Shown: one piece after another, positions 162 through 63,911 of the stretch | Position numbering within the stretch: position 1 is the first letter of the stretch | Layout of the letters: the number at the start of each line of letters is the position of its first letter | Origin: Eledone cirrhosa | Lineage: Eukaryota | Direction: 5' to 3' | DNA: 64,000 bases | Assembly: GCA_964016885.1 (NCBI GenBank) | Contig: OZ024743.1 | Location: 72,416,001 to 72,480,000, forward strand | Notes under the pieces: generated by a model | Told to the model about the DNA's origin: nothing | The model's database searches: none | What the model saw: the letters and a program-made list of their open reading frames with translations, nothing else | Made by a program: the position numbers and the translations under genes

Positions 162-868
162 GTGTATATGGATGTGTATGTATGTGTATGTGTGTACACA
201 TGGACTAGAGTATGTATGTATATATGTGTGTGTCTATACGTGTGTATATAAAGATAAGTTGAGTATGAAAATGTATACACATGAGCACGTATGTATGTAC
301 ATAAATACATGTGTGTATATATGTGTATGCATGTGTATATATATGTAAGTATGAATATGTGAATTGTGTGTATATGTATTTTGTAGAGGTGTGCAAATAT
401 ATTTGTGTGTGAATGCGTGGGTGAAAGGATACGTACACTTGAAAGAAAAATTTAAGTCTGAATGTTAATTAAGTGCAAACACAAAACCAACCACGCATAT
501 CTTCACTATCTCTAATCCTTCTATAGATTTAGAAAAATAACCAATAATATATTCTATAAAAAATGTCAAAACAACAGATGGGAATCTAATTACTCACTGC
601 CACCAAGAATTCTAACTGCTATCGAAAAACCACTCCTTCAACTATTCTTCTAATAACTTCACCCCTCCCTCCTAATATTCTCTATAAAAACTAAATAGGT
701 CCTCAGTAATATTATTCTGATGAAATGACAGTAAATAATAACATTGAAATATTGAATGTCTGCATAACTAAAAGTTTGTAGATAGCTGTTTTAGGTTATG
801 TAACTGTTATAGAAACACGTGTCAATAAATTCCTTTCAACTAAACTGTATCCATTCAAATCTTTCTAT
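1..868 (+). repeat. 5' pseudo-LTR (direct repeat of 3604-4519)
   Basis: Identical apart from ~3 substitutions, (TA)n length and a short duplication; both copies end at TCTTTCTAT. Confidence 0.95.
712..828 (+). ncRNA. Type I hammerhead ribozyme with 88-nt branched stem II
   Basis: Stem I TTATT/AATAA; CTGATGA 717-723; stem II base ATGACAGT/ACTGTTAT; GAAAC 812-816; palindromic CACGTG; GTC 821-823. Confidence 0.8.
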
Positions 869-1032
869 TTTTCTCCGGATTACTTTTGGAACTACAACTG
901 GAACCGTCGAGCAAACTCTACGTGAGCTGATAATCTACTGTGTGTAATATTTATATTACAACACAACGGAAAATACTGTATATTTACCTCCTGTAAAGTC
1001 GAGCAACCCACACAGCAAACGCAACCACAACA

Positions 1033-3352
1033 ATGGAAAAACACTACCTGGATATGTCACTCAAAAACATACCAACCCAGGGTAGAAAGGAATATTTATT
1101 GAGCATGATTCAAAAAACTAATGAATTCATTCGACGTGTCAGGTGGAAAACGCTCCACTATGATAGAAGCCGTATGAACTCAACATTAGAAAGTGGTGTA
1201 AACAACAAATTCGGTTTTAGGACTTGTAAAAACCCACCCACCAACCCACTATTAGATGCATTTGAGCAGGACCTTATGAACTTAATCCTTAAAATTAAAT
1301 TCAAAGGACGCAACACCAACAGCAAATTACAGAAAGATATAAAAAACTACTGGACGACCTTAAAAACACCAAAGGAATTGTAGTAAAAGCGGACAAAACA
1401 TCAAACCTGTACACTATGGATTGCACTACATACAACAACTTCATTCGAAAAGAATTACATAAAAAATATAGAAAAACGAGTGAAGTAACCCTTAAGCACA
1501 TCAATGATGAGGCATGCGAAATAGTGAAAAATCTCGGAATCGAAGATAGGACAGGACCACTCTTACCGGCGGTACCCACCTTCAATCTTAAGGACCACAA
1601 GGTAAACTTTGATAATGACCCTAAAATTAGATTAATCTGCCCCTCTAAATCAGATATAGGTAAAATAAGCAAATATATCTTAAATAGAATCATCCCCCAA
1701 ATTAAGGCTAAGGTTAACATTAAACTCTGGGGGAAGACCCAGGAAGCAATAAGATGGTTTAATAGCATTAGCAATAAGAATAAATCTAAGTTTATCCAGT
1801 TTGATATCGATGAATATTACACATCGATATCACCTGAAACTTTGAATAGAGCCATTAAGTTTGCTAAGGATAACTCTGACCTTACAAACGATGAAATTAA
1901 GATTATATTAGAAGCTAGGAAAACTATAGTCAAATTTGAGAACAGTTATTGGGTACGTAAAGATAGACCCTCTAACTTTGACATAACAATGGGCTCTAAC
2001 GATTCGGCGGAAATAACTGATATTGTGGGGTTATTTATCGCCTTTAGACTCCAGGAAAAATTCAGCAATCTCCACGGCGGAATATACCGCGACGATGTTC
2101 TCCTCCTAGCTAAAAACCTTAATAACCAAAAACTAGAAAAACTACGCAAAGATATAAGAAAACTACTACTCGAAATAGGACTACTATAACATATGAATAC
2201 AACCTTAAAGTAGTTAACTTCCTGGATGTCACACTCAATTTAAACTCTGGTTTGATTAAACCGTTTCATAAATTGAATGAAAATCTCAAATACGTAAATG
2301 TTGGGTCTAACCACCCCTTCTCTATAATTAAATCTATCCCTAAAAATATTTCCCTTAGAATCTCGGGTCTATCTTCTAACATACAAGTATTTAAGGAACA
2401 CGCCGAGTACTACGATAACGCCCTTAGTAAAGCAGGCTACCTCAACAAAATAGAGTACATAGATGGGAACAATCAAAACACTCAAAATAAATCCCACATA
2501 GGTAGATATAATAACACAACACCAAACCACACTTACTACCATAGTATGCACACCAGTAAACCAACAAACAAAACTAATAGAAAGCGATGCAAAGAGTACT
2601 TATGGTATAACCCCGAACACAATAGCTCCATTAGTACAAATTTACCAGTACTCTTCTTTAAAATAATTAAAAGACATTTTCCCACATCACACAAATACCA
2701 CAAAATCCTAAACCCTACCACTATAAGACTGTCATACTCTACAGCGTTAAACCTTGAACAACACATAAAAAAGATCAATACTAGAAGGTTAAACGAAAAC
2801 ACTAAGAACTTAAGTACAAAGAACACAAAAAAAACAGTAGACAATACACTACAGAACATAAATAAACCACACCTAAGTTCGTCCGCAATACTACTCCAGA
2901 GAAAACCCAATGTACACAACTGTAACTGCACCTATCCTGACAACTGCCCCCTAGGCAATAACTGCCTGGAAAAAAATATTATTTATAAGTGTACCATTAT
3001 ATCCGGAGGCAACGAGTGGTATTACGTGGGATCAACGGCAACAACGTTTAAATCTCGATTGTATAGGCATTCTTACTCAATAAAACACCAGAGCCAAAGA
3101 AATGTAACAACTCTAGCAGAAAAAGCTTGGACGCTCAGGGATAGCGATCAAAAGTTTACCCTAAAATGGGAAAAATTAGCTAAAACCCAAAGCTTTTCCA
3201 GGAGCCAAAATTTCTGCAAATTGTGTAATCTTGAGATTTATTACATAATCACACACAAGAAGAAACTGCTGAATAACAGAATTGAACGAACATTATTCTG
3301 CCGTCACAGAACTAAAACCCTTTTTTCCCACTACAAGCCGAATATTACATAA
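1033..3352 (+). pseudogene. PLE polyprotein (RT + Cys-rich linker + GIY-YIG endonuclease), split by two 1-nt deletions (~1345, ~2183)
   Basis: Motifs: SLKNIP..RRVRWK; KADKTSNLY; FDIDEYY; MGSNDSAEI; catalytic YRDD at 2085-2096; VNFLDVTLNL; SNHP; NCNCxxxxNCPLxxxC; IIY..YYVGST; CKLC..E..N..CRH. Adding one A at each break joins the three ORFs. Confidence 0.92.
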
Positions 3353-3464
3353 AAGAGGGACATCCCCCAACTATATAAACCTTAATCTAGTTAGAAAAAT
3401 ATAAAAACAATCTCTTCTCAACATATATTAATAACCTTAAATTACCATACTAATAATGAAAAGA

Positions 3465-3522
3465 TATGCTGATGAGAATAGGTACAAATATGCGATAATG
3501 AATGTGTCTAAAAACGTCCATA
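3465..3522 (+). ncRNA. Degenerate second hammerhead-like motif in the PLE 3' UTR
   Basis: Stem I TATG/CATA; CTGATGA 3469-3475; stem II TAGGTACA/TGTGTCTA; AAAACGTC instead of GAAACGTC. Confidence 0.4.
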
Positions 3523-3603
3523 AGTATGTATATATATGTGAAAATGTATATAAATAAGTAAATATATATATATGTTTGATGTGTATAGTTAGATGTAAGT
3601 GTA

Positions 3604-4581
<978 letters not shown>

Positions 4582-17929: not shown

Positions 17930-18465
17930 CGATAGCAACTAACAGCGCTGCGATCGAATGTGGGTTTTTAGCCCAGCCAATGATCTAAAATGTCTTGCAC
18001 AGAGTCGGCAACCAAAACATTCACTGGGAATAGCCGGCTGTGGTTGGAGTTCGTGTACTTTTGCATGTCGCTTGAGCCCTCCTGCTGATTTACATTCTCT
18101 ACCACATGTTTGGCAAGCATGATGAGTAGCATCTCCAACAGCAGCCTGGTAGTCAACCACTGGTCTTACTCTATGACTGCGAAGATGACTTTCGAGTCCA
18201 GTTTTGCTTAGGCAGAGTCTCGCACAGACGCTGCATGTCAGCACCATAGGAGGACCCTCACCGTCTGGAAGTGCAACAGCAATGCCCTTCCTCACATCCC
18301 GCTTTACTTTCTCGTATGCGATTCGAGATGCCTCAAAGGCAACTTTTCTCTCATATACAGTCTTTCTCCATTTATTACGATCAGCAGCAACATTTTCCCA
18401 TGTATCAGCAGAGATGTTAGCGTCTTTCAAAGAGGCTTTCAAGGAATCCTTATACCTCTTTTTTA
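17930..18465 (-). mobile_element. RTE LINE 3' end with three C2H2 zinc fingers
   Basis: KKRYKDSLKASLK..WE..AADRNKWR, then CSVC..H..H, CQTC..H..H and CRLC..H. Confidence 0.85.
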
Positions 18466-19189
18466 CATACATACACATATACATACATACATACATATAT
18501 ACACAAACATACTCATACACATAGATACATATATACATACATACATATACATAGGTACATATATACATATATACATGCATAAAATACAGATAAACATACA
18601 TACATGCAAAAACATACACATATACACACATACATACTCAAACATACACATATACATACATACATACATACATACATACATAAACATACACATATATATA
18701 GATACATACATACATAAACATACACATATACATAGATACATAGATACATAGATACATACATACATACATGCATAAACACATAAGCATACATACATGCATA
18801 AACATACACATATACATACATACATACTTACACAAACATACACATATACATACATATATACATATATACATACATTCATTCATAAACATACATATATACA
18901 TACATACGTACACATACATACACACATACATACATGCATGCATAAACATACATATATACATGGTGGCTGCCAACTCGTATCGAGAGAGATAGATAGAGTA
19001 TGTGTGTGTGTGCATGTGTGTGTGTGTGTGAGAGAGAGAATCTGTGTGTAAATGTGTGTGTGTGTGAGGGAGAGAGAGATTGTGTGTGTGTATGAGAGTG
19101 AGAGAGTATGTGTGTGTGTGTAAAATTACGACTAATTGCAACTAGGTGTATATATGTCTAATGAACCTGTAATTATGTATTAATATATA

Positions 19190-19484: not shown

Positions 19485-21992
19485 GTGTCTATGTAATGTA
19501 CTGTACTGTTGTTATGTCTGTGTAATCGACTGTACTGTTGTTATGTCTATGTAGTGGACTGTACTGATGTCATGTCTATGTAATGGACTGTACTGTTGTT
19601 ATGTCTATGTAATGGACTGTACTGTTGTTATGTCTGTGTAATGGACTGTATTGTTGTTATATCTGTGTAATGGACTGTACTGTTGTTATGTCTGTGTACT
19701 GGACTGTACTGTTGTTATGTCTGTGTACTGGACTGTACTGTTGTTATGTCTATGTAAGGACTGTACTGTTGTTATGTCTATGTAATGGACTGTACTGTTG
19801 TTATGTCTATGTAATGGACTGTACTGTTGTTATGTCTGTGTAATGGACTGTACTGTTGTTATGTCTATGTAATGGACTGTACTGATGTTATGTCTATGTA
19901 ATGGACTGAACTGTTGTTATGTCTATGTAATGGACTGTACTGTTGTTATGTCTATGTAATGGACTGTACTGTTGTTATGTCTGTGTAATGGACTGTACTG
20001 TTGTTATATCTATGTAATGGATGTATACTGTTGTTATGTATATCTAATGGACTGTACTGATATTATGTCTATGTAATGGATGTATACTGTTGTTATGTCT
20101 ATGTAATGGAAGTATACTCTTGTTATGTCTATGTAATGGGTGTGTACTGTAGTTATGTATATGTAATGGACTGTACTGTTGTTATATCTATGTAATGGAC
20201 TGTACTGTTGTTATGTCTATATAATGGACTGTACTGTTGTTGTTTCTGTCTAATGGGTGTTACTGTTGTTATGTATATGTAATGTACTGTACTGTTGTTA
20301 TGTATATGTAATGGGTGTGTACTGTTGTTATGTCTATGTAATGGATGTGTACTGTTGTTATGTCTATGTAATTTACTGTACTGTTGTTATGTCTATGTAA
20401 AGGACTGTACCGTTGTTATGTCTATGTAATGGACTGTACTGTTATTATGTCTGTGTAACGGACTGTACTGTTGTTATGTCTATGTAATGTATGTACACTG
20501 TTGTTATGTCTATGTAATGGATTGTACTGTTATTATGTCTATGTAATGGATGTATACTGTTGTTATGTTTGTGTAATGGACTGTACTGTTGTTATGTCTA
20601 TGTAATGTACTGTACTGTTGTTATGTCTTTGTAATGTACTGTACTGTTGTTATGTCTATGTAATGTACTGTACTGTTTTATGTCTGTGTAATGGACTGTA
20701 CTGTTGTTATGTCTGTGTAATGGACTGTACTGTTGTTATGTCTGTGTAATGGACTGTATTGTTGTTATATCTGTGTAATGGACTGTACTGTTGTTATGTT
20801 TATGTAATGTACTGTACTGTTGTTATGTCTATGTAGTGGACTGTACTGTTATTATGTCTATGTAGTGGACTGTACTGATGTTATGTCTATGTAATGGACT
20901 GAACTGTTGTTATGTCTATGTAATGGACTGTACTGTTGTTATGTCTATGTAATGGACTGTACTGTTGTTATGTCTGTGTAATGGACTGTACTGTTGTTAT
21001 ATCTATGTAATGGATGTATACTGTTGTTATGTATATCTAATGGACTGTACTGATATTATGTCTATGTAATGGATGTATACTGTTGTTATGTCTATGTAAT
21101 GGAAGTATACTCTTGTTATGTCTATGTAATGGGTGTGTACTGTAGTTATGTATATGTAATGGACTGTACTGTTGTTATATCTATGTAATGGACTGTACTG
21201 TTGTTATGTCTATATAATGGACTGTACTGTTGTTGTCTCTGTCTAATGGGTGTTACTGTTGTTATGTATATGTAATGGGTGTGTACTGTTGTTATGTCTA
21301 TGTAATGTACTGTACTGTTGTTATGTATATGTAATGGGTGTGTACTGTTGTTATGTCTATGTAATGGATGTGTACTGTTGTTATGTCTATGTAATTTACT
21401 GTACTGTTGTTATGTCTATGTAAAGGACTGTACCGTTGTTATGTCTATGTAATGGACTGTACTGTTATTATGTCTGTGTAACGGACTGTACTGTTGTTAT
21501 GTCTATGTAATGTATGTACACTGTTGTTATGTCTATGTAATGGATTGTACTGTTATTATGTCTATGTAATGGATGTATACTGTTGTTATGTTTGTGTAAT
21601 GGACTGTACTGTTGTTATGTCTATGTAATGTACTGTACTGTTGTTATGTCTTTGTAATGTACTGTACTGTTGTTATGTCTATGTAATGTACTGTACTGTT
21701 TTATGTCTGTGTAATGGACTGTACTGTTGTTATGTCTGTGTAATGGACTGTACTGTTGTTATGTCTGTGTAATGGACTGTATTGTTGTTATATCTGTGTA
21801 ATGGACTGTACTGTTGTTATATTTATGTACTGTATTGTACTGTTGTTATGTCTATGTAGTGGACTGTACTGTTATTATGTCTATGTAGTGGACTGTACTG
21901 ATGTTATGTCTATGTAATGGACTGTACTGTTGTTATGTCTATGTAATGGACTGTACTGTTGTTATGTCTATGTAATGAATTGTACTGTTGTC
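19485..21992. repeat. 29-bp satellite array (TGTTGTTATGTCTATGTAATGGACTGTAC)n
   Basis: About 85 tandem units with 28-30 bp variants. Confidence 0.97.
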
Positions 21993-22120
21993 GTGCTATG
22001 TTTGTAATGGTACAGGTCTAAGCGAATACACATATTAAACATACACACACACACACACATATACATACAATTATATATATATATATACATGTACGCGTGT
22101 GTGTGTGTGTAACTTGTTTG

Positions 22121-25229: not shown

Positions 25230-26990
25230 TTTCGTTATATTAATGACTCGAATTTATTTCTCGACAAATACCGTTACATTTATGAGTGCTCTTCTGACAA
25301 TTGTGTGTTTCATGGACACTTTTTTTACACATGATATTGAGTATAATGTCATTTGCAATGTCATTAGTTTTCCTGCTGTGCGATACCTCTATCATCGTCG
25401 TGGTATGTTTACATCACCTCGGAATATATTACATGAGTGTAAATTATTTCTCTTATTTCTTATGTTAGATTTAATCAATTTAGAGTATCTGCCATACAGA
25501 ACATTTTCATAGATTCAAGGATCATCGAATGGGGCAAAATATCATGGCCTTTTTAAAATGTGCCCATGTCATATTCAGGTATCTCACCGAAAGGTACAGA
25601 CTTTTATTCTTCCGTCCTTTACGACAAGACGATCGTTTTGCTCCCATTGATTGTTTCCTGCCCTTTTTTCATCTAAAAAGGGGAAGATATTATTTAAGGG
25701 TTGATGATTTTTTCTCTGAAAGGGAATTCCTGTTAATAATCTCCAAAGCAGGTTTTGAACAGTTAATAGGCTTGTAATATCCAGCTACAGTTAATTTCTT
25801 CAGGTTCTTGATAAAATGTTGTCCGCCCTTCAATTATCCAAATTTCATGGAGGATTTTAGTTGAGGATAACTTGAAAGAATTTGATATTAGTGGTTATTG
25901 GAAAATAACAAAATTCCTTCGCATGATGGCGCTACAGTTAAGGGAATATAATATTTTGAGATATACTTACAATCTCTGAAATTCCAGGAACGAAATTGAC
26001 CGAAATTCTTGCTGGGAGAATGAACCATCTGATACATTGATGTTAGATATTCGAGCATTTTAGGATTGTGGTATTATTTTGAACATATGCTTATGTGTAG
26101 GACGGTTAATAATCCAATCTAAGCCTTTGATCATACACATTCTTCTACGATACGTGTTAGATATATAATTAAATCAATTTTCTTATATTAAACCTGTCAT
26201 CAAATATTAATTGGTGTTTACAAACCATAGAAATTTTTACTCTTCAACCCTGAGATTATCAGTAAATCTGTGTTACGCTCCATAAAATTCCATCTCCTAT
26301 TTTTAAAGCACACAGTAAGTTAGGAGAAAAACATATCAGTATAGAAACCATTTAATTTCATTGACGTCATTATTGCATCTTTGAAAATAATGAATATCAT
26401 AAGATAAAGTTTGTGTTCAAATAAGAAATCACAGGAAAAATACACTAGCGCATTTGATTTGAAGTATTGATGCTGGTTAGAACATAATTTCTTATTTTAG
26501 TTTGTGATAGGAATTCGTGATATCACTTTATTTGGGATTATGAACCACATTCCACATTATTCTTACTTACATTACATCTACTTTACTTATTATCCGCCCT
26601 AAAATGTTTATGAAATGAGTAACAGTTACGCATATCATAATATTAAGAATTGAAAATGCCCAACTTATTTCCATCCACAGTGCAATACTAATGTATTACA
26701 CAGTACGATATAACACCTAATTATATAATGCTGATATATTTTATCAGTAATATCTAAATCATCACATAGATAAAGAATGAGAAGTTGCTATTGCTCTTAG
26801 GGTATTTTCAGTATAATCCGAACTTCAGCTCTTTAAAATAGCCATGATACTGTTTTCTACGATTCAATACATTTTCTGCTTCCTAATGAAATATACTGCA
26901 GCTCAGAAATTCTAAATATTTGTTGCGGAAACATTCTTAGAGAAACTTTGATGTGAATTATAAAAATATCCAGCCTAATGTAGATACTTT
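25230..26990 (-). pseudogene. Possible decayed LRR / Toll-like receptor coding remnant
   Basis: Hand translation gives LRR-like ISELQYISLG, NLKKLTVAG..PINCS and a TIR-like YHDDDR..IANDII; many stops and frameshifts. Confidence 0.3.
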
Positions 26991-27600
26991 CTTTTTTTAT
27001 TTATGTATCAGTACACAGGAATATACTGTATGGAGTTAATTTAAAATGAAATAACTAATAATTTCTTCACGCAGAAGAAACTATTGGAGTGTAAATACGT
27101 AATCATAAACCAAGTATAAGACAGGGCTCTGAGATAAAGTGAGCTAGAAGTTAAAAAAGAATGAATGGAAGAGTGAGCAACGTCAACAACGTATACCTTC
27201 CTGCCAGATAGTTGAAACGTCTGAAAGTATATATAGAGAGAGAGTGAGGGAAGAAAATGGGATAAATAAAGGGAAAACACTAGAGAAGATTTGAAGATAG
27301 AATATAAAGAGAAATAAAACAACCAAACCAAGAAACTCAGTATGACTTGAGGTGTTCATGACTCCAAACAATATATTATGTAAATAATAGGTACGTTAGG
27401 TGTACATATAGTAGTGTATGATTCCATGTGTGTATATGTCATATACTAACGCAATATCTATAAATATAAATATCATTACGTAACGCAAGGCATATTTTCG
27501 ATAGATATTTGGTGTTCTGTGAGGCAGAGTTGAAGTTAATATTAAAAGAAAATATTGTATACAATCACAAACGAGCACGCACGCACACCCTCACATAATA
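25816..27600 (+). repeat. Local duplication, copy A
   Basis: Aligns with 28214-29990 with scattered substitutions and small indels. Confidence 0.95.
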
Positions 27601-27612
27601 TATGTATATATG

Positions 27613-27694
<82 letters not shown>

Positions 27695-27713
27695 CATATA
27701 TATATGTATATAT

Positions 27714-27801
<88 letters not shown>

Positions 27802-27806
27802 CTATG

Positions 27807-27840
<34 letters not shown>

Positions 27841-28213
27841 CATGTGTGCAGCTATAAGATATCAAATGTAAAGGTTCTGTTATTCATTTAATCCAATCAC
27901 CACCTACAGTATCGGGCTTTACAGTTGTGATTTTGATCTCTTATTCGGTTGCCTGCTTCAACCTTTGAACTTCATTCGGGATGCGTTATATATTCCTAAT
28001 ATTTTGTTGCTCAAACCGACCTTCCGTATTTCTTTAAGTTTTGAAAGTATTGTCTCCTTCAACATTTCATCAGGTGGCTAATTTCACATTTTGACGCTAT
28101 TTTAATGAGATGTGAATGTTAATAACGTAAAAGTAAACACAAACATAGACAATCGCGATCAAGCACGTGCCCGTACACAGATATGACGTATATATATATA
28201 TATAAATGATAAT

Positions 28214-29990
28214 ATGTTGTCCGCCCTTCAATTATCCAAATTTCATGGAGGATTTTAGGTGAGGATAACTTGAAAGAATTTGATATTAGTAGTTATTGGA
28301 AAATAACAAAATTCCTTCGCATGGTGGCGGTAGAGTGAAGGGAATATAATATTTTGAGATATACTTACAATCTCTGAAATTCCAGGAACGAAATTGACCG
28401 ACATTCTTGCTGGGAGAATGAACCATCTGATACATTGATGTTAGATATTCGAGCATTTTAGGATTGTGGTATTATTTTGAACATATGCTTATGTGTAGGA
28501 CGGGTTAATAATCGAATCTAAGCCTTTGATCGTACACATTCTTCTACGATACGTGTTAGATATATAATTAAATCAATTTTCTAATATTAAACCTGTCATC
28601 AAATATTGATTGTTGTTTACAAACCATAGACATTTTTACTCCTCAACCCTGAGATTATCAGTAAATCTGTGTTACGCTCCATAAAATTCCACTCCTCTGT
28701 TTAAAGCACACAGTAAGTTAGGAGAAAAACAGATCAGTATAGAAACCATTTAATTTCATTGACGTCATTATTGCATCTTTGAAAATAGTGAATATCATAA
28801 GATAAAGTTTGTGTTCAAATAAGAAATAGCAGGAAAAATACACTAGCGCATTTGATTTGAAGTATTGATGCTGGTTAGAACATAATTTCTTATTTTTTTT
28901 TGTGATAGGAATTCGTGATATCACTTCATTTGGGATTATGAACCACATTCGACATTTTTCTTACTTTCATTACATCTACTTTACTTATTATCCGCCCTAA
29001 AATGTTTATGAAATGAGTAACAGTTACGTGGTAGAAGGAAACGCATATCATAACATTAAGAATTGAAAATGCCCAATTATTTCTATCCACACAGCAATAA
29101 TAATGCATTACACAGTACGATATAACATCTAATTATATAATGCTGATATATTTTATCAGTAATATCTAAAACATCACATAGATAAAGAATGAGAAGGTGC
29201 TATTGCTATTAGGGTATTTTCAGTATACTCTGATCTTCAGCTCTTTAAAATAGCCATGATACTGTTTTCTACGATTCACTACATTTTCTGCTTCCTAATG
29301 AAATATACTGCAGCTCAGAAATTCTACATATTTGTTGCAGAAACATTCTTAGAGAAATTTTGATGTGAATTATAAAAATACCCAGCCTAATGTAGATACT
29401 TTCCTTTTTTAATTTATCTATTAGTACACAGGAAGTTACTGTATAGAGTTAATTTAAAATGAAATAACTAATAATTTCTTCACGCAGAAGAAACTATTGG
29501 AGTGTAAATTGGAGTGTAAATAAACCAAGTATAGGACAGGGCTATGGGATAAAGTGAGCTAGAAGTTAAAAAAGAATGAATGGAAGAGTGAGAGAGAAAG
29601 AGAGAGAGAGAGAGAGGGAGAGAGAGAGAGAGAGAAGAAGAAAAGGGGGTAAATAAAGGGAAAACAATGGAGAAGAATTGAAGATAGAATACAAAAAGAA
29701 ATAAAACAATCAAACCAAGAAACTCAGTATGACGTGGGGGAATATTTATGACTCCAAACAATATATTATGTAAATAATAGGTACGTTAGGTGTACATATA
29801 GTAGTTTATGATTCCATGTGTGTATATGTCTGGAGCTGAAATAAATCATATACTAATGCAATATCTATAAATATAAATATCATTACGTAACGCAAGGCAT
29901 ATTGAAGTTTATATTAAAGTTTAAGTATATATTAAAAGAAAATATTGTATACAATCACAAACGAGCACGCACGCGCATCCTCACATAATA
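28214..29990 (+). repeat. Local duplication, copy B
   Basis: Aligns with 25816-27600. Confidence 0.95.
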
Positions 29991-30006
29991 TATATATATA
30001 TGTATG

Positions 30007-30265
<259 letters not shown>

Positions 30266-34206: not shown

Positions 34207-34268
34207 TATTTTATCTGATGATAGCGTACCAAAGTGTTTGGTACCCTTGAAATATATATAATAGAATA
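34207..34268 (+). ncRNA. Type I hammerhead ribozyme
   Basis: 8-bp stem I TATTTTAT/ATAGAATA; CTGATGA 34215-34221; GTACCAAA/TTTGGTAC; GAAA 34249-34252; palindromic TATATA-TA. Confidence 0.8.
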
Positions 34269-35919: not shown

Positions 35920-37542
35920 TTACCAACAATATGTCATCAACTCAACTGTAAAGGGTCTGACTTTAAGAATTTCCCTACATTTAGTAGAACGAGGCTATCT
36001 TCCACGATTATGCGGGCTATTATAACGAAGCCCTTAATAGGGCCAGTTTCAATAACGAAAATAAATTCATATCAGATGTACGTAAATCACATAAATACGC
36101 ATCATATAAAAAGTTATTTGGACGAAAAATATCCACTGAGCCATGGAACTATTACAAATAATACAGATGCCACGACAAATATATCAACAATACAATTGAA
36201 CAACGAATTAATAATGAAAATTCCAAATTCATGGATTAACCTTTAATACATCAAACAAATAGCTATAGGTTTAACCTATACTCGAGCAACTATAGGAAGA
36301 AGAACAAGCAACTGTGGGAAGAATAAAACTCACACTGTGCATAATTTCTTAGCTGGAACAAACTCCAGTTACGCAACGAGAGAGAAGACCATAATGTTAA
36401 AAATAGTGACCCTTCCAGAATGCCGGCACAACTAGGAGCCAACCCTACCGCTCTCCCGAAACGAACCCACTCAAGAACATATTTCTGATATAACCCTACA
36501 TATGGTACCCAGTCTGAAATAATACCTATCAAGTTTTAAAAGAAATAACAATCTCCCAGAAACTCATTAATCTAGTAAATGTCTTTAATAAAGAAATACT
36601 CAAACTGCCCTAATCCACTTTAACTTTGAAACATTTATCAAAGATCTTGAAACGTAAATGGTTAAATAAATATAAATCAAAACAATCTTTTTCCGCTACA
36701 CTCTGGCTGGTTCAATGGTAACGCACCTCACAATCATATGTCACAACCAATCCTGTATAATAATTTACGCACGTCTGAATCAAATATAACAAACTCAAAC
36801 ACAACTAACTTAAACCCCCACTCCATTAACACCCAAACTTAAATTTAAAATATGAACTGGTAGCAATCAAAATTGGGGAGAAAATATAACTGTAGAGAGC
36901 AAGAAAACTGCCTCCGAGGAAGCAAATGCCTGTATATAGGACAATAGTATATATATATGTGGGGTAAGCTCTGCAAGGGTCACATATAAATATTTCGCTT
37001 CAACAGTAAACAATTTTCAAAAACAGTTCTATGTGAACAGACATTTATGTATAAATAAACCCCGCTTGCGAGAAAAATCTGACAGTAGAAACAAAATAGC
37101 ATTAACTAAAAACACTCATGGTCTATCATATGGTTTGCTAGAAAATCCGATCTCTGTACAGTTGTAGTACTGGCGATTATTAACCGTAAGGATTTAAAAA
37201 ACTACAGACAGGATTTCTAATTGCCTATACTGATCACTAAATGTCTGTTCTGAATACAGGGAATATACTACCTAGGGTGCTAAAGTGTATAAATCCCAAT
37301 TAAATAATCCACTCTAGATGCTATAATAATTATTCCTGTGACTGACAAGAAAAACAACAATTTTTTAGCATTATTTGCTTTGATATTTCTGCTTGTTTTG
37401 TTTTGACTGCATACCAAAATATGGACTATACCCCTTGATAAGTTCAGCAAGATTTCCACTGTTCTAATACAGCTGGCATAGTTCGTATCTAGCTGTCGAA
37501 ACGGCCTGAACTCACAGCCATCGGGGTCCTGACACTTTTCCT
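35920..37542 (+). mobile_element. Highly decayed Naiad-like PLE ending in a 'GGGGTC'-family pLTR
   Basis: Remnants YVNH, F*YNPTY, NCREQENCLRGSKCL; decayed HHR ACCCC-TTGATAA..GAAACGGC..TC-GGGGT at 37430-37527. Confidence 0.55.
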
Positions 37543-43354: not shown

Positions 43355-44072
43355 ATTTAGCAAATAAGAGACCCAAATGTCCTTCAGATACCCCTGAGTA
43401 ACCATCTAGCAACATGTGATCAGAAAATATTTATAATATTTCCATTCTACAAATTATACAGCCCAAGTGAAATCAAGAGAAAAATTAAAGAAAATAATTT
43501 TATTGATAAATTCCAACCCAAGCTAAATGAACAATAATAATGCTTATGACTACGCCTACGACCATGTAGACTACCACCACTAACAAGAATAACAATAATA
43601 ATAATAAAAGTGATGTTGATGGTGATGATTACGGAAGATCTTTATAAAAACCCTAGAAAATTCTATTTTCATCATTTCTAAAAATAGCAAAACAATTGAT
43701 GATTTGGATAGGGTCAAATAGAAGTCGTTAGACATGCTCAACCAACCGTGTCACTTACACCAATCCGCTTTAGTAATCTAGTGAAACTACACACCGTTTG
43801 GTCGAAATACAGTTTGCAAAACTTAGCATTCTGTAGCCCCTTTTTAATGTATATAAGGCACATAATTCACCCATCTCATTACAGTTGAAAATTGCAAACT
43901 TGACTGTCACCACTGAACATGAACCTGAAGATTGCGAAAGCATGAAAGTACTTGTTCAACTAACACTTAACATTTAATATTCTACCACACTGTTTCATTA
44001 TAATATCATTATAATTTTAAAGGATTGTAAATAAAACGAGTAAATCGGACAAAGTTGGAATTCCTTTTATTA
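43355..44072 (+). mobile_element. 5'-truncated PLE (non-Naiad GIY-YIG C-terminus + pLTR)
   Basis: QIRDPNVLQIPLSNHLATC..FIIFPFYK..RKIKENNFIDKFQPKLN; HHR at 43920-43958; ends at (TA)n. Confidence 0.75.
43920..43958 (+). ncRNA. Hammerhead-like motif with almost no stem II
   Basis: TGAAC-CTGAAGA-TTGC-GAAAG..CTT-GTTCA. Confidence 0.65.
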
Positions 44073-46971: not shown

Positions 46972-49900
46972 TTAGCGGTATGATGGCATGTATTCCGTAC
47001 GTTAATATCCAGGTGGTTCAGTTCTAATTTTGGGATTGCTGGGTCGAACCAAATTCAAAAAACGGACACATCACAACAAACTACAAAACGACATCAATGC
47101 ACTATTAAAAAAAACTACGCATCACCAACGGTATTGTAGTAAAAGCGGACAAAACATCAAACGTACAACATGAGCCTTAATACATGCAATACGCCGTGAA
47201 CTACACACAGATAGAGAAAACGACAGAATCTACACTCAATAGTATTAATAAGGAAGGATTTAGCATAGTAAAAAAACTGAAAATGTCTCATAGATCGAGC
47301 CTGTAACCCTTGTAACCCCACATTTAACCTAAAGGATCCCAAAAGTAATTTCGAAACAGTCACCACAATTAGATTAATATGGCCATCGAAGTCGGATATA
47401 GGTAGAATTAGCAAGTATATACTAGATAGAGTAATAGCACAAATCAAGGACAAACTAGTAATTAAGCTATGGGGTAACACTAAAGGAGCAATAGACTAGT
47501 TCAGCAAAATAGACAGTAGGGGAAAATCCAACTTCGTACAGTTTGACATCAATGACTACTACTCCTCCATCTCCTAGGTCACCCTAGATAAAGCGCTAGT
47601 CTTTGCCCAGAAAAATTCGGACCTAACCTCTGATGAAATTAAAATAATACTAGCTGCTAGGAGAACTATCATTAGATTCGAAAACAGTTACTGGGAACGA
47701 AAAAACAGACAGAATAGCTTCGATATCACAATGGGATCTAGCGACTCAGCGCAGGTATTAGACATAGTGGGAATATATATAGCGCACAACTTACATAAGG
47801 AATTTAATAACCCCCAGGGAGGAATTTATAGAGACGACACACTGCTTTTAGCTAAAAACTTAAATGATCAAAACATGGAAAAATTACGGAAAAACATCAG
47901 TCTTCTTCAACAAACTAGGCCTAGGTATCACTTTCGAATTTAACTCTAAAAAAGCAAACTTCTTAGATGTAACACTCAACCTAAGCACATGATTAATAGA
48001 GCCCTTCCATATAAATAATAAGAATCTAGCCTACATTAGTTATAACTCAAACCACCTCGATTCATAATTAACTCCGTAGCACATAGTATGACTCAGAATA
48101 TCCAGAATAACCTAGAGATTTGTAATGAACACGCAAACTATTATAACATAGCTGTACATAAGGCAGGACATAAAAAGGGGCACGAATACATACCAGATAG
48201 AGACAGCAGCAACAAACCTAACGACAGCTACACTACCCACACCTATAGAAATAACAAACATAGGACTAAACTTAGAATTAGACACCGAGCACCAAAAATA
48301 ACTGAACCGAATACTAATATAAGGATCCCTAGGAACTATAGAAAATCCAGAGATAAGAAATACTTATGGTTCAATCCAATATTCAACTCCTCTATAAAAA
48401 CCAAACTACCTTCTACATTTTTTAAGCTAATTGACAAACACTTCCCTAAACTTCACAAATACCATAGAATCTTTAACAGAAAAATTATCAAACTATCTTA
48501 TTCTACTGCAGCCAACATAGAATCACACATACATAACATCAACCACAAAAGAATCTCTAAAGAAAATAACCTACCAACATACACCATAGCACCAAATACA
48601 AAACGCAAACACATAACAACACACACACATCAGGGCGCATCACAACAAAGCATTAATAGGCCTAAATCTCAACCCAGCCATAACAACATGCAAAACCGCA
48701 ACGGAGAACCTACACACAGAAAAGCCTCCAACTTTAACTACCACCTACCGGATAAGTGCCCACTACAAAATAGATGCCTGGATTCAAGTATGGTGTACCT
48801 GTCTACTATAAATTCAGGCAACCTTACATAACATTACATAAGTTCCACGGCTGGGGAGTCTTAAAAAAATATGGTACGTTCAAAGATACACCATGAAGAA
48901 CCGTAGACAGGAGAACTCTACAACGCTCGCCAATAAAATCTGGTAGCTTAAAAACACAAACCAGGAATATAGGATTAGCTGGTTAAAATTATCGGGAGCA
49001 AGGGCCTACGCAATGGAATGTCCGACTGCAGACTTTGCAATATGGAGCTATTCCATATTTTAAGGTATGATAAGATGCTGCTTAACAGCAAAATAGAAAG
49101 ATCAATGTTCTGTAGGCACAAAATAGCTACCAAGTTCACACATTTCAAACCACTGTGATTCAACATAGCAATCCCAACATTAGAACTGAACCACCTGGAT
49201 TTTAACGTACGGAATACATACCATCACACCGCTATTAGCTGTCAAATAACTGACTGGTCACTAGATCATAAATCTCTAAACATCTCTTTCACCCTCTCTA
49301 ACTGAAACCACATAAACCCCATTAATACTAGACAATCAGCAAAACATTTACCACACATACATATAACCCCCCCCCCCCCCCCGCCGTTCAACATCCATCC
49401 TTAGCCCTTGGTTATCATACTAGTATCTCCCACTTAATTTCTTATTTATCGCTTTTTCTTTTATCTGTCATTTGTTACTGCCTCAGATTTTCTTAAAGAA
49501 TCTATGTCTGTTTCGAATATGGCTTTTCATGTTAGCACTACAAACACCCCAGCATCCTTATACAGACACTTACTCACCACCACAACTATTATCAATTATC
49601 GTATTCTGCACTTATATACTCTCACTTATCTTTATTTATTTATATTTTTTCTTATTTTATTTATTTATTAATTTTTTCTCACTTTTTTATAGTATCTTTT
49701 TTCTTACTTTTTACTTTTTACCTCTGTAACTTATTTACCTATTTATCATTCTATTTTATTATTGATGTTATTGTTTTGATTCTACGCTATTTCTCTATAT
49801 ATACTATGCCATGTATGAATTCTTTGTATTCTGAACATTTGATCAGAGGTAAATAATGAGATCGAGTGACGCAACTTCGAGCGATTAACCACTTCTAGAC

Positions 49901-50149
49901 TCACCTGATTAATGAAACAATTGTTAATACCTGAAATAAATCCCCTTGTTGTACAGCCGACCATGTTACTCTTCAATCTTTCACTATTATTACTCAAAGT
50001 ATAACCTGCATAGTAATTCTCGCGAACTCGCTACCTAACTACGGAAACATCTTGTTGACTCAATAAAAAGCCGTACGTTAAAACAATCCACGACACAGAG
50101 TACTCACAACCTCTAACTGGATTACCTATAACGATAACTTATTTTCCCA
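46972..50149 (+). mobile_element. Naiad-type PLE copy 2, 5'-truncated, with inverted 5' pLTR piece
   Basis: Homology to 1033-3352 with many stops (KADKTSN, MGSSDSAQ, GGIYRDD, WFNP, CPLQNRC, CRH); 46972-47040 is the inverse of 49167-49235. Confidence 0.9.
49826..49930 (+). ncRNA. Long-stem-II hammerhead with damaged 5' core
   Basis: GTATT/AATAC; CTGAAC instead of CTGATGA; ATCAG..CTGAT stem; GAAAC-AATT-GTT. Confidence 0.6.
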
Positions 50150-54856: not shown

Positions 54857-55425
54857 ATTCACAAGAATCTAAGCTATGTTCAAAGCAATTATTCACTTAC
54901 AATTGTTTGATCCAAACCTAGGCTTGGAATCTTCGGAGCATTTTTCAATATTTGTACACATAATTGACCTCCTTTCCAACGCAAGAGACATACAGATACA
55001 TATGTATATATTGATGTACAGTGGAGTGACATATATTATATTATATTATTTCTGTATAGCAATTCAAATTCAAAATCAAAATCAAATTAAAACAAAATAA
55101 AAACAAAATTAAAATACATTCGGCAGTTAACATAGATAATGCAAGAGGATAGTTTGTTAGTCAGATGTAGTAGTTATTGTATTCGTTAGTTACACGTGGG
55201 GCATGCACGTGTGTCTCATTTATATATGATTATTGTGTGGCAGGGTGTTACATGTAATAGAAGCACTTTAAGCGGGTAAGTAAGAGTATTAAGGAGGTTG
55301 TAGTGGTAAGGAGGTCAATTATCTGTACAAACATTGAAAAATGGTCCGAAGACTCCAAGCCTAGGTTTGGATGAAACAATTGTAAGTGAATAAATGCTTT
55401 GAACATAGCTTTGATTCTTGTGAAT

Positions 55426-55510: not shown

Positions 55511-55619
55511 CAGTCTAACAATTGTTTCCATGATACAGTTGTCTAGAAATTGCTAAACACTGAAGACAGCATAACTCAATTTAAAATTCATGCAACCTCC
55601 ATCATTTCATCAGAAACTG
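55511..55619 (-). ncRNA. Inverted copy of the long-stem-II hammerhead
   Basis: TCATCAG at 55607-55613; core intact. Confidence 0.78.
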
Positions 55620-58006
55620 ATAAGAGATACAAAATATATGCGTAACGATAAACTTATCAATTCAAATTAAAACATCAATAATATTATTAAAGAAAAAAAA
55701 ATGAAGGAAGGGGGTCAGATGGAAAGGAGAGGGGAAAAAGAAAAAACGGCGAAAGAGAGAACGAAGATATAGTTAAATGTATAACCGGCAAAGTTACGAA
55801 ATCAAACTATCACATCAAAATAAATATAATATTAATAATAAAGATGCATATTGAAAGAATGAAGGGGGGGGGGGGGGTGTAGTAAAGGCATCAATGTACT
55901 TATAAGAAAATTACGTGCCACCAATGGTATCATTGTAAAAGCAGATAAAAATCTAATGTATACACCATGAACCTTAATGCATACAACAACTTTATACGCC
56001 GTGAGTTACATAAAAAATACAAGAAAACTACGGAGTCTGCACTTAACAGTATTACCACAGAAGGTCTTAGCATAGTAAAAAATGTTAAATATCAGATAGA
56101 ACCGAACCTCTTACACCTTGTGAACCCACTTTTATTCTGAAGGATCATAAATGTAACTTCGAAACCAACCCTACTATTCGATTGATATGTCTTTCAAAAT
56201 CGGATACAGCCAGAATTAGTAATGTTATACTAGATTGAATATTACCACAAATTAAGGAACAACTAACTATCAAGCTGTGGGGTAACACAATTGAAGCAAT
56301 AGACTGGTTCAACTCATTAGACAGTAGATAATCGTCAGACTTTATACAATTTGACATAAATGACTACTACTCTTATATCTACCCAAGGCACTATCCTTTT
56401 GCTCCAAAAATTCGGATCTTTCAGCAGATGATATTAAAATAATACTAACCGCTAGAAGAATAATCATTAAATTCGACAACAGCTACTGGGAGCGAAAAAA
56501 TAAACAGAATAAATTCGATATAACTATGGGATCAAACGACTCAGCCCAAATCACAGACTTGGTTGGAATCTATATAGCATATTTCTTACATAGAGAATTT
56601 GGTAAACTACAAGGCGGAATACATACCAGATACAAAAAAATAACTACACACTTAATGTTAGTAATACTTCCCACAAACATAGAAACAGCAAACCTAGGTC
56701 TAAACGCATAAATTGGCAGCATACACCTAATTTAAATAAACATAATGCTAATACAAAAACCACTAGTAGCCATAGAAGATGCATAAATAGAAGCTACTTA
56801 TGGTTTAATCCAATGTTTAACTCCTCTATTAAAACTAAGCTTCCTTTCGCTTTCTTTAAATTAGTTGACAAACACTTCCCTAAAATTCATAAATATCATA
56901 AAATCTTTAATAGAAAAACTATCAAACTATCATACTCCACTGCCAACAACATAGAATCGCACATTCCCAAAATTAACTACAAAAGAATTCATAATCAAAG
57001 TAGCCCACATGTAAGTTCCATATCACCAAATACAGAACACACGCATATTACATCATCGCAACCGAACTCACGCCCGAGCACACCACCACAATACATCAAC
57101 AAACCTAATTCGCAACCCATACATAACAATCTTCAAAATTATTTAGTAGAACCGGCCCATAGGAAAGCATTTCTATGTAACTTCCACTTACCTGACAAAT
57201 TCCCTCTACTAAACAGATGCCTGGAGAAAAATGTAGTATACCTGTGTACTATCAACTCAGGTAGCTTTGCATGGTATTACATTGGTTCCACAGCAGGTGT
57301 TTTTAAAAAACGGTGGTACGTGCACAGACATTCTATGATTAATAAGAATCAATCAAATACAACAACTCTCGCCAACAAAATCTGGCAACTCAGGAATTCA
57401 GGTATTGAATACGAGATCAGTTGGTCAATACTGTCAAAAGCTAAGGCCTATCAAACTGGTATGTCCCATTGTACGCTCTGTAATATGGAGCATTTCCAAA
57501 TTCTTAATTTCAGTAAAACCCTTCTTAACTGTAGAATTGAACGAACTATCTTTCGCCGACATAAATCAGCAACGAAATTCCTGAACTTTAGACCAGCTTA
57601 ACTCCAATTTCTATGCCTTATCCCGTTTTATACCTTTAGTATCTATTACGATATCAAATTATCACTAACTTTATAATTACCAAAGAACAACTTCAGAACA
57701 TTTGTATTTACATCATTATTTTTATTTTATTTGTATTTACAACATTTCTTATCTTATACACCAACATGTTTCACCATTTGTCTTTGCATTTCTCCACTTA
57801 AACCTATTTCATCTCGATCATTTTATCCTATCATGTAATACATCTCAAATTAGCTAATTTAAATATCCAATTATTTATTTATTTATTTATTATTTATTTA
57901 TTTATTCTCGTCTCTACGTTCCACATATTATAACATTTTATATAACAATAGATGTAAATTGTTTATTTATTCATATATCTATTTATTTATATAGTTATCT
58001 ATGCAT

Positions 58007-58497: not shown

Positions 58498-58606
58498 CAG
58501 TTTCTGATGAAATGATTAAGGTTGCATGTATTTTAAATTGAGTTATGCTGTCTTCAGTGTTTAGCAATTTCTAGACAATTCTATCATGGAAACAATTGTT
58601 AGACTG
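58498..58606 (+). ncRNA. Type I hammerhead with 78-nt branched stem II
   Basis: CAGTTT/AGACTG; CTGATGA 58504-58510; ATGAT/ATCAT; GAAAC-AATT-GTT 58589-58600. Confidence 0.8.
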
Positions 58607-63861: not shown

Positions 63862-63911
63862 GAACTGCAGACACTAATGTTTCTGGGTATCATCCTTCAT
63901 CAGTACAGCTC
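63862..63911 (-). ncRNA. Type I hammerhead ribozyme
   Basis: Minus strand reads GAGCTGTA-CTGATGA-AGGATGATACCCA-GAAAC-ATTAGT-GTC-TGCAGTTC; 8-bp stem I; tail runs to (TA)n at ~63715. Confidence 0.8.

Follow-up and report, generated by a model that had tools for sequence, protein, structure and literature searches.

The window analysed here, a 64,000-nt stretch of Eledone cirrhosa contig OZ024743.1 (assembly GCA_964016885.1, a 3.0-Gb, microsatellite-rich animal genome), carries near its 5′ end a Penelope-like element (PLE) bearing a type I hammerhead ribozyme motif in its pseudo-LTRs, here called family A, and further hammerhead motifs of other families lie downstream (Table 1). A hammerhead descriptor matched four sites in the window against a mean of 0.01 in 100 shuffled versions (largest count 1). 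The family A motif combines a CUGANGA core, a GAAA box, the A15.1–U16.1 pair, an NUH triplet and an open stem I, and its stems I and II covary among families. The G10.1–C11.1 pair is absent, being A.A in the window copy and a mismatch in 14 of 18 lineages; non-paired bases here also occur in published Hydra-clade hammerheads (PMC8557442), and a U.U mismatch at 10.1/11.1 is known from natural hammerheads (PMC8557442; PMC3088659).

Table 1. Hammerhead motifs and features of the associated Penelope-like element in the window (positions are those of the 64,000-nt stretch; pairings, folds and cleavage sites are predicted).
Feature	Positions	Strand	Remarks
Type I hammerhead motif, family A	712..828	+	88-nt stem II; in 5′ pseudo-LTR
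Stem I, 5′ strand	712..716	+	5 bp, partner 824–828; stem I covaries across families
Catalytic core C3–A9	717..723	+	Followed by A724.A811 mismatch (position 10.1/11.1)
Basal stem II, 5′ strand	725..732	+	8 bp, partner 803–810
Module element 1, 5′ strand	738..746	+	Helix with bulged A743; partner 792–799
Module element 2, 5′ strand	751..757	+	Top helix and purine-purine loop
Apical stem-loop	757..784	+	Sequence and length differ among families
Module elements 2 and 1, 3′ strands	783..799	+	
Basal stem II, 3′ strand	803..810	+	
GAAAC-ACGT-GTC	812..823	+	GAAA box; 8-nt palindrome 815–822 (predicted intermolecular stem III); predicted cut after C823
Stem I, 3′ strand	824..829	+	Overlaps a hexamer taken to be polyadenylation-signal-like
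Optional ‘tail’	869..981	+	Between two preferred 3′ ends (~868, ~981)
ORF assigned to a Hydra-clade PLE	1033..3352	+	RT, then GIY-YIG; two frameshifts here, intact at 785 aa elsewhere
3′ UTR / 3′ pseudo-LTR	3604..4519	+	Direct repeat of 1–868; ends in (TA)n
Second family A hammerhead	4363..4479	+	Identical; possible dimer partner on a tandem transcript
Family D hammerhead	37430..37527	+	U3–A8 core, real stem III, 56-nt stem II without module; outside the architecture
Family C hammerhead	49826..49930	+	Decayed; intact family members have 82-nt stem II with module
Family B hammerhead	55511..55619	-	In inverted pseudo-LTR
Family B hammerhead	58498..58606	+	78-nt stem II with module; 3′ of a Hydra-type endonuclease remnant (56606–57601)

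The first-pass annotation of this DNA had described a complete type I core with a closed stem I enclosing 88 nt, and this description stands for both family A copies, as do the 78-nt inserts that it had placed in the two family B hammerheads. The family C site, for which it had given ~78 nt, is a decayed copy with a broken core and an 8-nt deletion. The family D site, which it had taken for a decayed example of the same architecture, falls outside it on all three counts listed in Table 1. A competing explanation raised at the time, cleavage directed by the nearer GAAA at 746–749, was rejected: the corresponding stem I would reach at most 2 bp (by eye), and this GAAA occurs in only three of 18 lineages (A, K and M), whereas the distal GAAAC-N4-GTH is present in 18 of 18, a figure to be read knowing that the parse demanded it. 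In family A the hexamer at 824–829, presumably polyadenylation-signal-like, starts right where cleavage is predicted; in families B and C it is placed 6–8 nt further on.

On its motif content the element is a Hydra-clade PLE and not a Naiad, as it had been labelled. The intact 785-aa copy holds in a single ORF the motifs RWK (aa 49), DKT (aa 133) and YRDD of the reverse transcriptase (RT; aa 364), a CxCX5C linker (aa 643) and a GIY-YIG endonuclease in C-terminal position (aa 663), with CxxC (aa 741) and CxH (aa 769) flanking the conserved E and N and no CX2-5CxxC. RWK, DKT, CxCX5C, C-terminal GIY-YIG, CxxC and CxH together make up the published definition of the clade (Craig et al., 2021, PMC8557442), and insertion into (TA)n is likewise seen, the 3′ ends of copies running into such tracts. 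A Naiad would need an N-terminal endonuclease and DKA, and neither was found in the intact copy. Naiad PLEs are alike in their (TA)n targets, pseudo-LTRs and inverted 5′ copies, and are described as having, besides those two features, no canonical hammerhead (PMC8557442). The element departs from the typical Hydra habit, which is no strict criterion, of a unit below 3 kb with a compact hammerhead: its unit measures ~3.65 kb (869–4519), with a long 3′ UTR and the 88-nt stem II. Family A is young, as all 150 scored endonuclease matches are 98–100% identical and many lie in 785-aa open frames. A Pfam search of six window frames and four other proteins gave no significant match, and IMG/VR held no relative of the element's RT. 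Microsatellite-like (TA/TG) tracts at 1–420 and 3520–4070 belong to the family A 3′ UTR and are copied with the element.

The insert in stem II is predicted to fold as an unbranched, bulged rod. In family A this rod has a free energy of -24.1 kcal/mol, which 60 shuffled versions of its interior place at z -3.0, and an unbranched fold is predicted for 105 of the 117 parsed copies drawn from all families. The branched domain of a basal helix with two hairpins, which the first-pass annotation had drawn, reaches -14.9 kcal/mol as drawn and -17.5 at best, 7–9 kcal/mol worse than the rod, with an ensemble probability of about 2e-5. The sense strand folds better than the antisense strand in 13 of 18 representatives. 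From its base, the rod consists of an 8–11-bp basal stem; a variable asymmetric loop; a helix (element 1) with a bulged A lying under a U.G and a U–A pair, continued by ~8–10 bp; and, roughly one turn above the bulged A, a G–C pair closing an A.G / G.A (or A.A) / U.U loop (element 2), from which a variable apical hairpin extends. In family A, C742–G795 lies beneath A743, with U744.G794 and U745–A793 above it, and G754, A755, A756 and U757 of element 2 face 783–786. This second element is weakened in the 88-nt variant by a 3-nt deletion on its 3′ side, and the closing G–C has a probability of only 0.20 in the window copy; because these 3 nt of the top helix are missing from 34 of 46 young family A copies, the window copy included, which makes this the most frequent variant, element 2 evidently tolerates damage. 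Pair probabilities across the module are predicted to be low in groups C2, C4, M, N, K and O. Tandem sheared pairs of the kind found in SECIS elements and kink-turns carry 5′-GA on each strand; such an identity was rejected here, the 3′ strand reading AG in all parsed lineages and no Rfam SECIS model matching.

Several observations indicate that the inserts of different families are homologous, and that ~11 families of a single endonuclease clade share this stem II module. The inserts had been called unrelated in sequence, yet those of families B and C align without gaps over a 47-nt inner block, and when only B and C went into a model, it matched family A copies (weakly, E 0.018 to 0.0009) together with two new groups (67 sources). 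The endonucleases of these families are 34–62% identical to that of family A. Over the 100 nt upstream of the core, likeness among 11 families is 0.51 against 0.52 in shuffles, while the module persists, found in every case inside stem II of an intact core. The core and its neighbours vary meanwhile: U4C occurs in I, C2 and C3, and U3–A8 in J, L and N; the letters of the stem III 8-mer differ, yet it stays self-complementary (weakly so in M and I2).

The pattern of substitutions is consistent with the predicted pairing. Between B and C, double changes affect four of five stem I pairs and four of eight basal stem II pairs, and the covariation within the insert that the first-pass annotation had called for amounts to six doubly changed inner pairs against one to three in slid controls. 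More broadly, 127 distinct copies were parsed, of which 117 fall into 18 groups (~11 families; 10 unassigned copies omitted) with inserts of 73–104 nt by group. Against shuffles that ignore the kinship of lineages, the two pairs under the bulged A stand out, paired in 36 of 36 lineage cells (shuffled 29.1 +/- 1.3; 0/5000) in swapped forms, U–A or C–G for the one and G–C, A–U or G.U for the other; middle pairs reach 37/54 (shuffled 26.3; 0/5000), top helix pairs 44/54 (shuffled 40.0; 2/5000) and apical pairs 37/54 (14/5000). Basal stem II keeps 79 of 90 pairs and stem I 61 of 72 over the same 18 groups, and the U.G over the bulge is kept in 17 of 18 lineages. The pairs under the bulge were absent from every search pattern, and the 3′ anchor was picked by position rather than pairing; invariance of the module anchors in families J–P is circular, because these anchors were part of the patterns that found J–P. 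Judged by eye on a tree of eight families, the four pairs that carry most information require only ~7 changes, and a single event may underlie the swap immediately beneath the bulge. RNAalifold alone did not recover the inner rod from the B and C alignment, where three of the six apical pairs are broken in family C; it detected no doubly changed pair within family A, because those copies are too alike, and gave no stem II consensus for a mixed set of 48–52-nt inserts. Plain MAFFT did not align the 3′ half correctly when A was combined with B and C. A pair count made on an alignment fitted to the model was set aside, as it is biased towards that model and contains spurious rows. The part of the earlier description that endures is a long stem II on a complete core, kept across diverged families with covariation in stems I and II, and its term ‘selected extra module’ is retained as our best reading of the insert.

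A largely neutral origin of the long arm, with pairing kept only to spare the core from misfolding, is made improbable by these data. It would account for the spread of stem II lengths in this genome (13–104 nt), for the free variation of the apical part and loops, and for the damaged top helix of the commonest young family A variant. It leaves unexplained why the A that has no partner, the U.G pair and the purine loop, which is likewise non-paired, stay in register amid randomized neighbours and a randomized upstream flank, an argument that carries the circularity noted above, and deletions that shorten the insert are rare singletons.

Less probable still, in fact quite unlikely, is that the insert is a spliceosomal intron of the pseudo-LTR retained in loop II, whose splicing would yield a compact hammerhead. 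Excision of 64 nt between GT 731 and AG 794 would leave a 9-bp hairpin (-8.1 kcal/mol), a result equalled or beaten by 13 of 192 arbitrary excisions. Some GT is present in the 5′ arm of 17 of 18 lineages, but family O has none beyond the basal stem in five of five copies; YAG is found in only 1/7 J, 2/6 L and 0/1 N copies; in A, J, M, O and P, AC or GC takes the place of the GT under the bulge and the opposite strand compensates; and several lineages would have introns of 47 nt. GT and YAG are thus not conserved across families as splice signals would be. No precise intron-less copy was found in the genome, the few short-insert matches (five in A, two in B, one in C) having no GT-AG junction; this is weak evidence, because PLEs retain introns. 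Contigs from four sequencing runs of unknown kind contain no joint that removes the insert, which says nothing on splicing. The precedent is the pseudo-LTR intron of Drosophila virilis Penelope, which abuts the hammerhead of that element and indicates that splicing can remodel a PLE hammerhead; the end of that intron is helix I, outside the core (PMC4209133), and splice signals are not conserved here.

Genome searches indicate that the long form is abundant in E. cirrhosa. A pattern of the core with the 5′ anchors gave 10,694 genomic matches against 480 in the control, the families from this search being drawn from the first 100 listed; a pattern of the inner anchors with the distal core box gave 50 against 0 and led to new families. 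In an endonuclease tree that used metagenomic relatives for comparison, all eight module families for which an endonuclease was available group together (support 100/99), separately from 34 metagenomic rows whose hammerheads are compact. Three ‘other’ rows inside the module clade are mis-assignments of a distance rule: one is an A copy parsed in a different way, and the remaining two are unrelated hammerheads located 1.5–1.7 kb from a module-family endonuclease. A related RT marks 77 metagenomic loci, taken from the best 80 of 219 matches; the 54 hammerhead matches in 43 of these loci all have 12–25 nt between the core boxes, and a broader model revealed no long form in the 77 loci. The distance from endonuclease to core is 496–913 nt in the module clade, compared with 54–524 nt in the compact relatives. 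The module pattern had scattered matches in GTDB genomes and IMG/VR, and none of the 86 of 126 checked with model R2 scored. Thus, among the loci compared, the module so far appears in one clade and one genome.

Such arms are readily overlooked, as the first-pass annotation had foreseen. The published PLE hammerhead descriptor allows a stem II of 3–7 bp with a loop 2 of 3–10 nt (PMC4209133), or ~26 nt at most between the boxes. Rfam gave no match at 640–1000 up to E 10, nor in 19 loci; as seven of those loci hold compact Hydra-like hammerheads that Rfam also fails to match, the insert by itself does not explain the absence of matches. Among the 150 of 284 matches listed for an Rfam scan of the whole window, microsatellite noise was seen and no hammerhead. 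A description of a long, conserved stem II in PLE hammerheads was not found in the freely accessible literature searched; the nearest cases in the accessible text are two Selaginella PLE-X motifs marked as deviating, with enlarged loops 2 of ~29 and 35 nt, which belong to another clade, are shorter and have no shared module described there (PMC8557442, File S2). Hydra-clade hammerheads agree with those here in the clade of their element, in having type I topology, in leaving a single base unpaired on either side at 10.1/11.1, and in a short self-complementary stem III and a position at the 3′ end of the element, but their loop 2 is 3–10 nt in 26 of 26 rows, as opposed to 71–104 nt between boxes and a module (PMC8557442, File S2). 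The minimal PLE hammerheads of Cervera and de la Pena (2014, PMC4209133) share the pseudo-LTRs, palindromic stem III, predicted dimer cleavage, an extra base after A9 and the U3–A8 core variant (here in families J, L and N), but have a helix II of at most 7–8 bp and a conserved G10.1–C11.1 that is absent here. What appears to be new is the structure, since both the ribozyme and the element clade are known; the module is real, and its function is predicted.

Long arms are not confined to the module clade in this genome. Other hammerhead families have 48–52-nt stems II consisting of a basal stem, a pyrimidine-rich internal loop and an apical hairpin (z down to -5), their sequences visibly different yet pairing. 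One of these, family F, occurs at two loci 2.2–2.4 kb downstream from an endonuclease whose Cys linker is Neptune-like, which suggests that stem II lengthened independently. Family D, with 3521 first-look candidates, has a 5-bp stem III with a palindromic loop and its 56-nt stem II, adjoins (TA)n, and has a decayed endonuclease-like stretch ~430 nt upstream; a stem II of 36–38 nt and a stem I of 10–11 bp characterize a Hydra-like family that falls outside the module clade. More compact hammerhead-like motifs of other families were noted in the window at 34207–34268, 43920–43958, 63862–63911 (- strand), 54890–54944 (- strand) and 55338–55392. The window, in which repeat searches are dominated by microsatellites, also holds a tandem array of period ~29 nt (19486–22010), a 2-kb direct duplication of 90% identity (25809–27825 and 28207–30221) and, on the minus strand, an open frame (17939–18637) in which, judged by eye, several C2H2-like motifs come after a LINE-like C-terminal stretch.

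The ends of genomic copies bear on how the ribozyme is used. Of 78 distinct family A 3′ ends, 43 lie at 866–875, 22 near 981–986 and one at 941, while 12 run on; copies therefore end 45 or ~157 nt past an uncut cleavage site. The family A optional tail of ~113 nt exceeds the 30–40 bp given for other PLEs in the accessible literature. Among 13 ORF-complete copies (13 of 20 regions passed the filter), none has its 5′ end at the cleavage site, and four have a 5′ junction at 716–788, at or within the rod; in this small sample, the rod may stall reverse transcription. Two copies cofolded in silico pair through the 815–822 palindrome at -60.1 kcal/mol, compared with 2 x -24.2 for the separate molecules, with both rods intact. 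A palindrome-mediated dimer was proposed earlier for PLE hammerheads (PMC4209133; PMC6765202). Dimerisation through the insert, one of the roles offered in the first-pass annotation, found no support: the apical loops differ in sequence and length, and the stem III palindrome already gives a dimer contact. PLE hammerheads are reportedly known to cleave as dimers from work by Lunse and colleagues in 2017.

From these features we propose that two copies, on a tandem transcript or on two RNAs, would pair by their 8-nt palindromes, form stem III and cut after C823, while each rod would stack away from the core and leave it undisturbed. Every genomic copy spans the site, so the RNA that is reverse transcribed was uncut there, and cleavage would therefore be slow or gated. 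These steps (the dimer cut, the stacking of the rod and the uncut template) are well supported by anatomy and by analogy. The copy ends match the anole Poseidon element PAc, which likewise has two discrete 3′ ends downstream of its hammerhead and uses uncut RNA as template with two internal RT start sites, and whose hammerhead cleaves only with the element's protein present (Frangieh et al., 2024, PMC11167929). PAc belongs to another clade; its compact hammerhead overlaps the ORF start, its protein-binding region is the first 172 nt of the ORF rather than an extended stem II, the sites where its RT begins are in a stem-loop that lies downstream of the hammerhead, and the accessible text reports no stem II module (PMC11167929).

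We favour, tentatively and at somewhat short of an even chance, a reading in which selection has kept the stem II module for protein binding, the likeliest partner being the RT-endonuclease protein that the element itself encodes. Features that proteins commonly read on RNA include a bulged A with a purine-purine loop roughly one helical turn away. Bound near the two sites where RT starts, a protein on the module would label the RNA as template, and the same protein could set when a weak ribozyme, with its AU-rich stem I and mismatched 10.1/11.1, folds and cuts. The fuller scheme, in which the element's telomerase-like RT sits on the module and, by gating cleavage, would keep the template RNA whole until cDNA synthesis has begun, is in our judgement a speculative extension and rather doubtful. 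Against a handle of this kind stand the hammerheads of the same genome with 36–56-nt stems II and no module, because they indicate that long arms can arise without it.

As doubtful as that scheme, and judged accordingly less probable than the own-protein reading, is a module made of RNA contacts only, docking on stem I, a partner ribozyme or nearby RNA and so tuning cleavage without protein; it would replace the loop I–loop II contact absent from short-stemmed PLE hammerheads. Bulged adenosines and purine-purine loops are typical docking surfaces, and the module always lies within stem II of an intact core; fast natural hammerheads do rely on stem I–stem II contacts (PMC3088659). The module lies 13–35 nt out from the core at a variable distance (5′ segment 15–31 nt), however, stem I has only 4–6 bp, and no base-paired pseudoknot between arm and flanks emerged, the best of six tests (106/5000) not being significant after correction. 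A host protein acting in nuclear export of unspliced RNA or in protection from decay, for which the hammerhead would be a folding platform, is unlikely, and more so than RNA docking. The longer 3′ UTR of the module clade (the 496–913 against 54–524 nt given above) and the restriction to one genome among the loci compared would fit a host-specific gain, and PLEs retrotranspose intron-retaining RNA (PMC8557442). Against a host protein, no Rfam family matches the module, its likeness to export elements is a presumed one, and its flanking letters vary among families. Binding by the element's own protein consequently heads our ranking, followed by RNA docking, a host factor, neutrality and, last, an intron.

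PLE hammerheads cleave poorly by themselves, one of them depends on its protein, and it is uncut RNA that is copied into the genome; at stake are the role of these ribozymes and the way they are switched on. A conserved stem II module on a young family with intact 785-aa ORFs offers a small, mutable handle on protein assistance and template recognition. Descriptors limiting loop 2 to 10 nt would overlook some ten thousand predicted hammerheads in this one genome, and PLE families scored as hammerhead-less or as ‘half core’ therefore merit a second look. Should the arm prove neutral, it would be a structural curiosity; if protein gating is true, the module would give a Penelope-like RT its first defined RNA handle and would count as the natural version of stem II aptazymes made by engineering.
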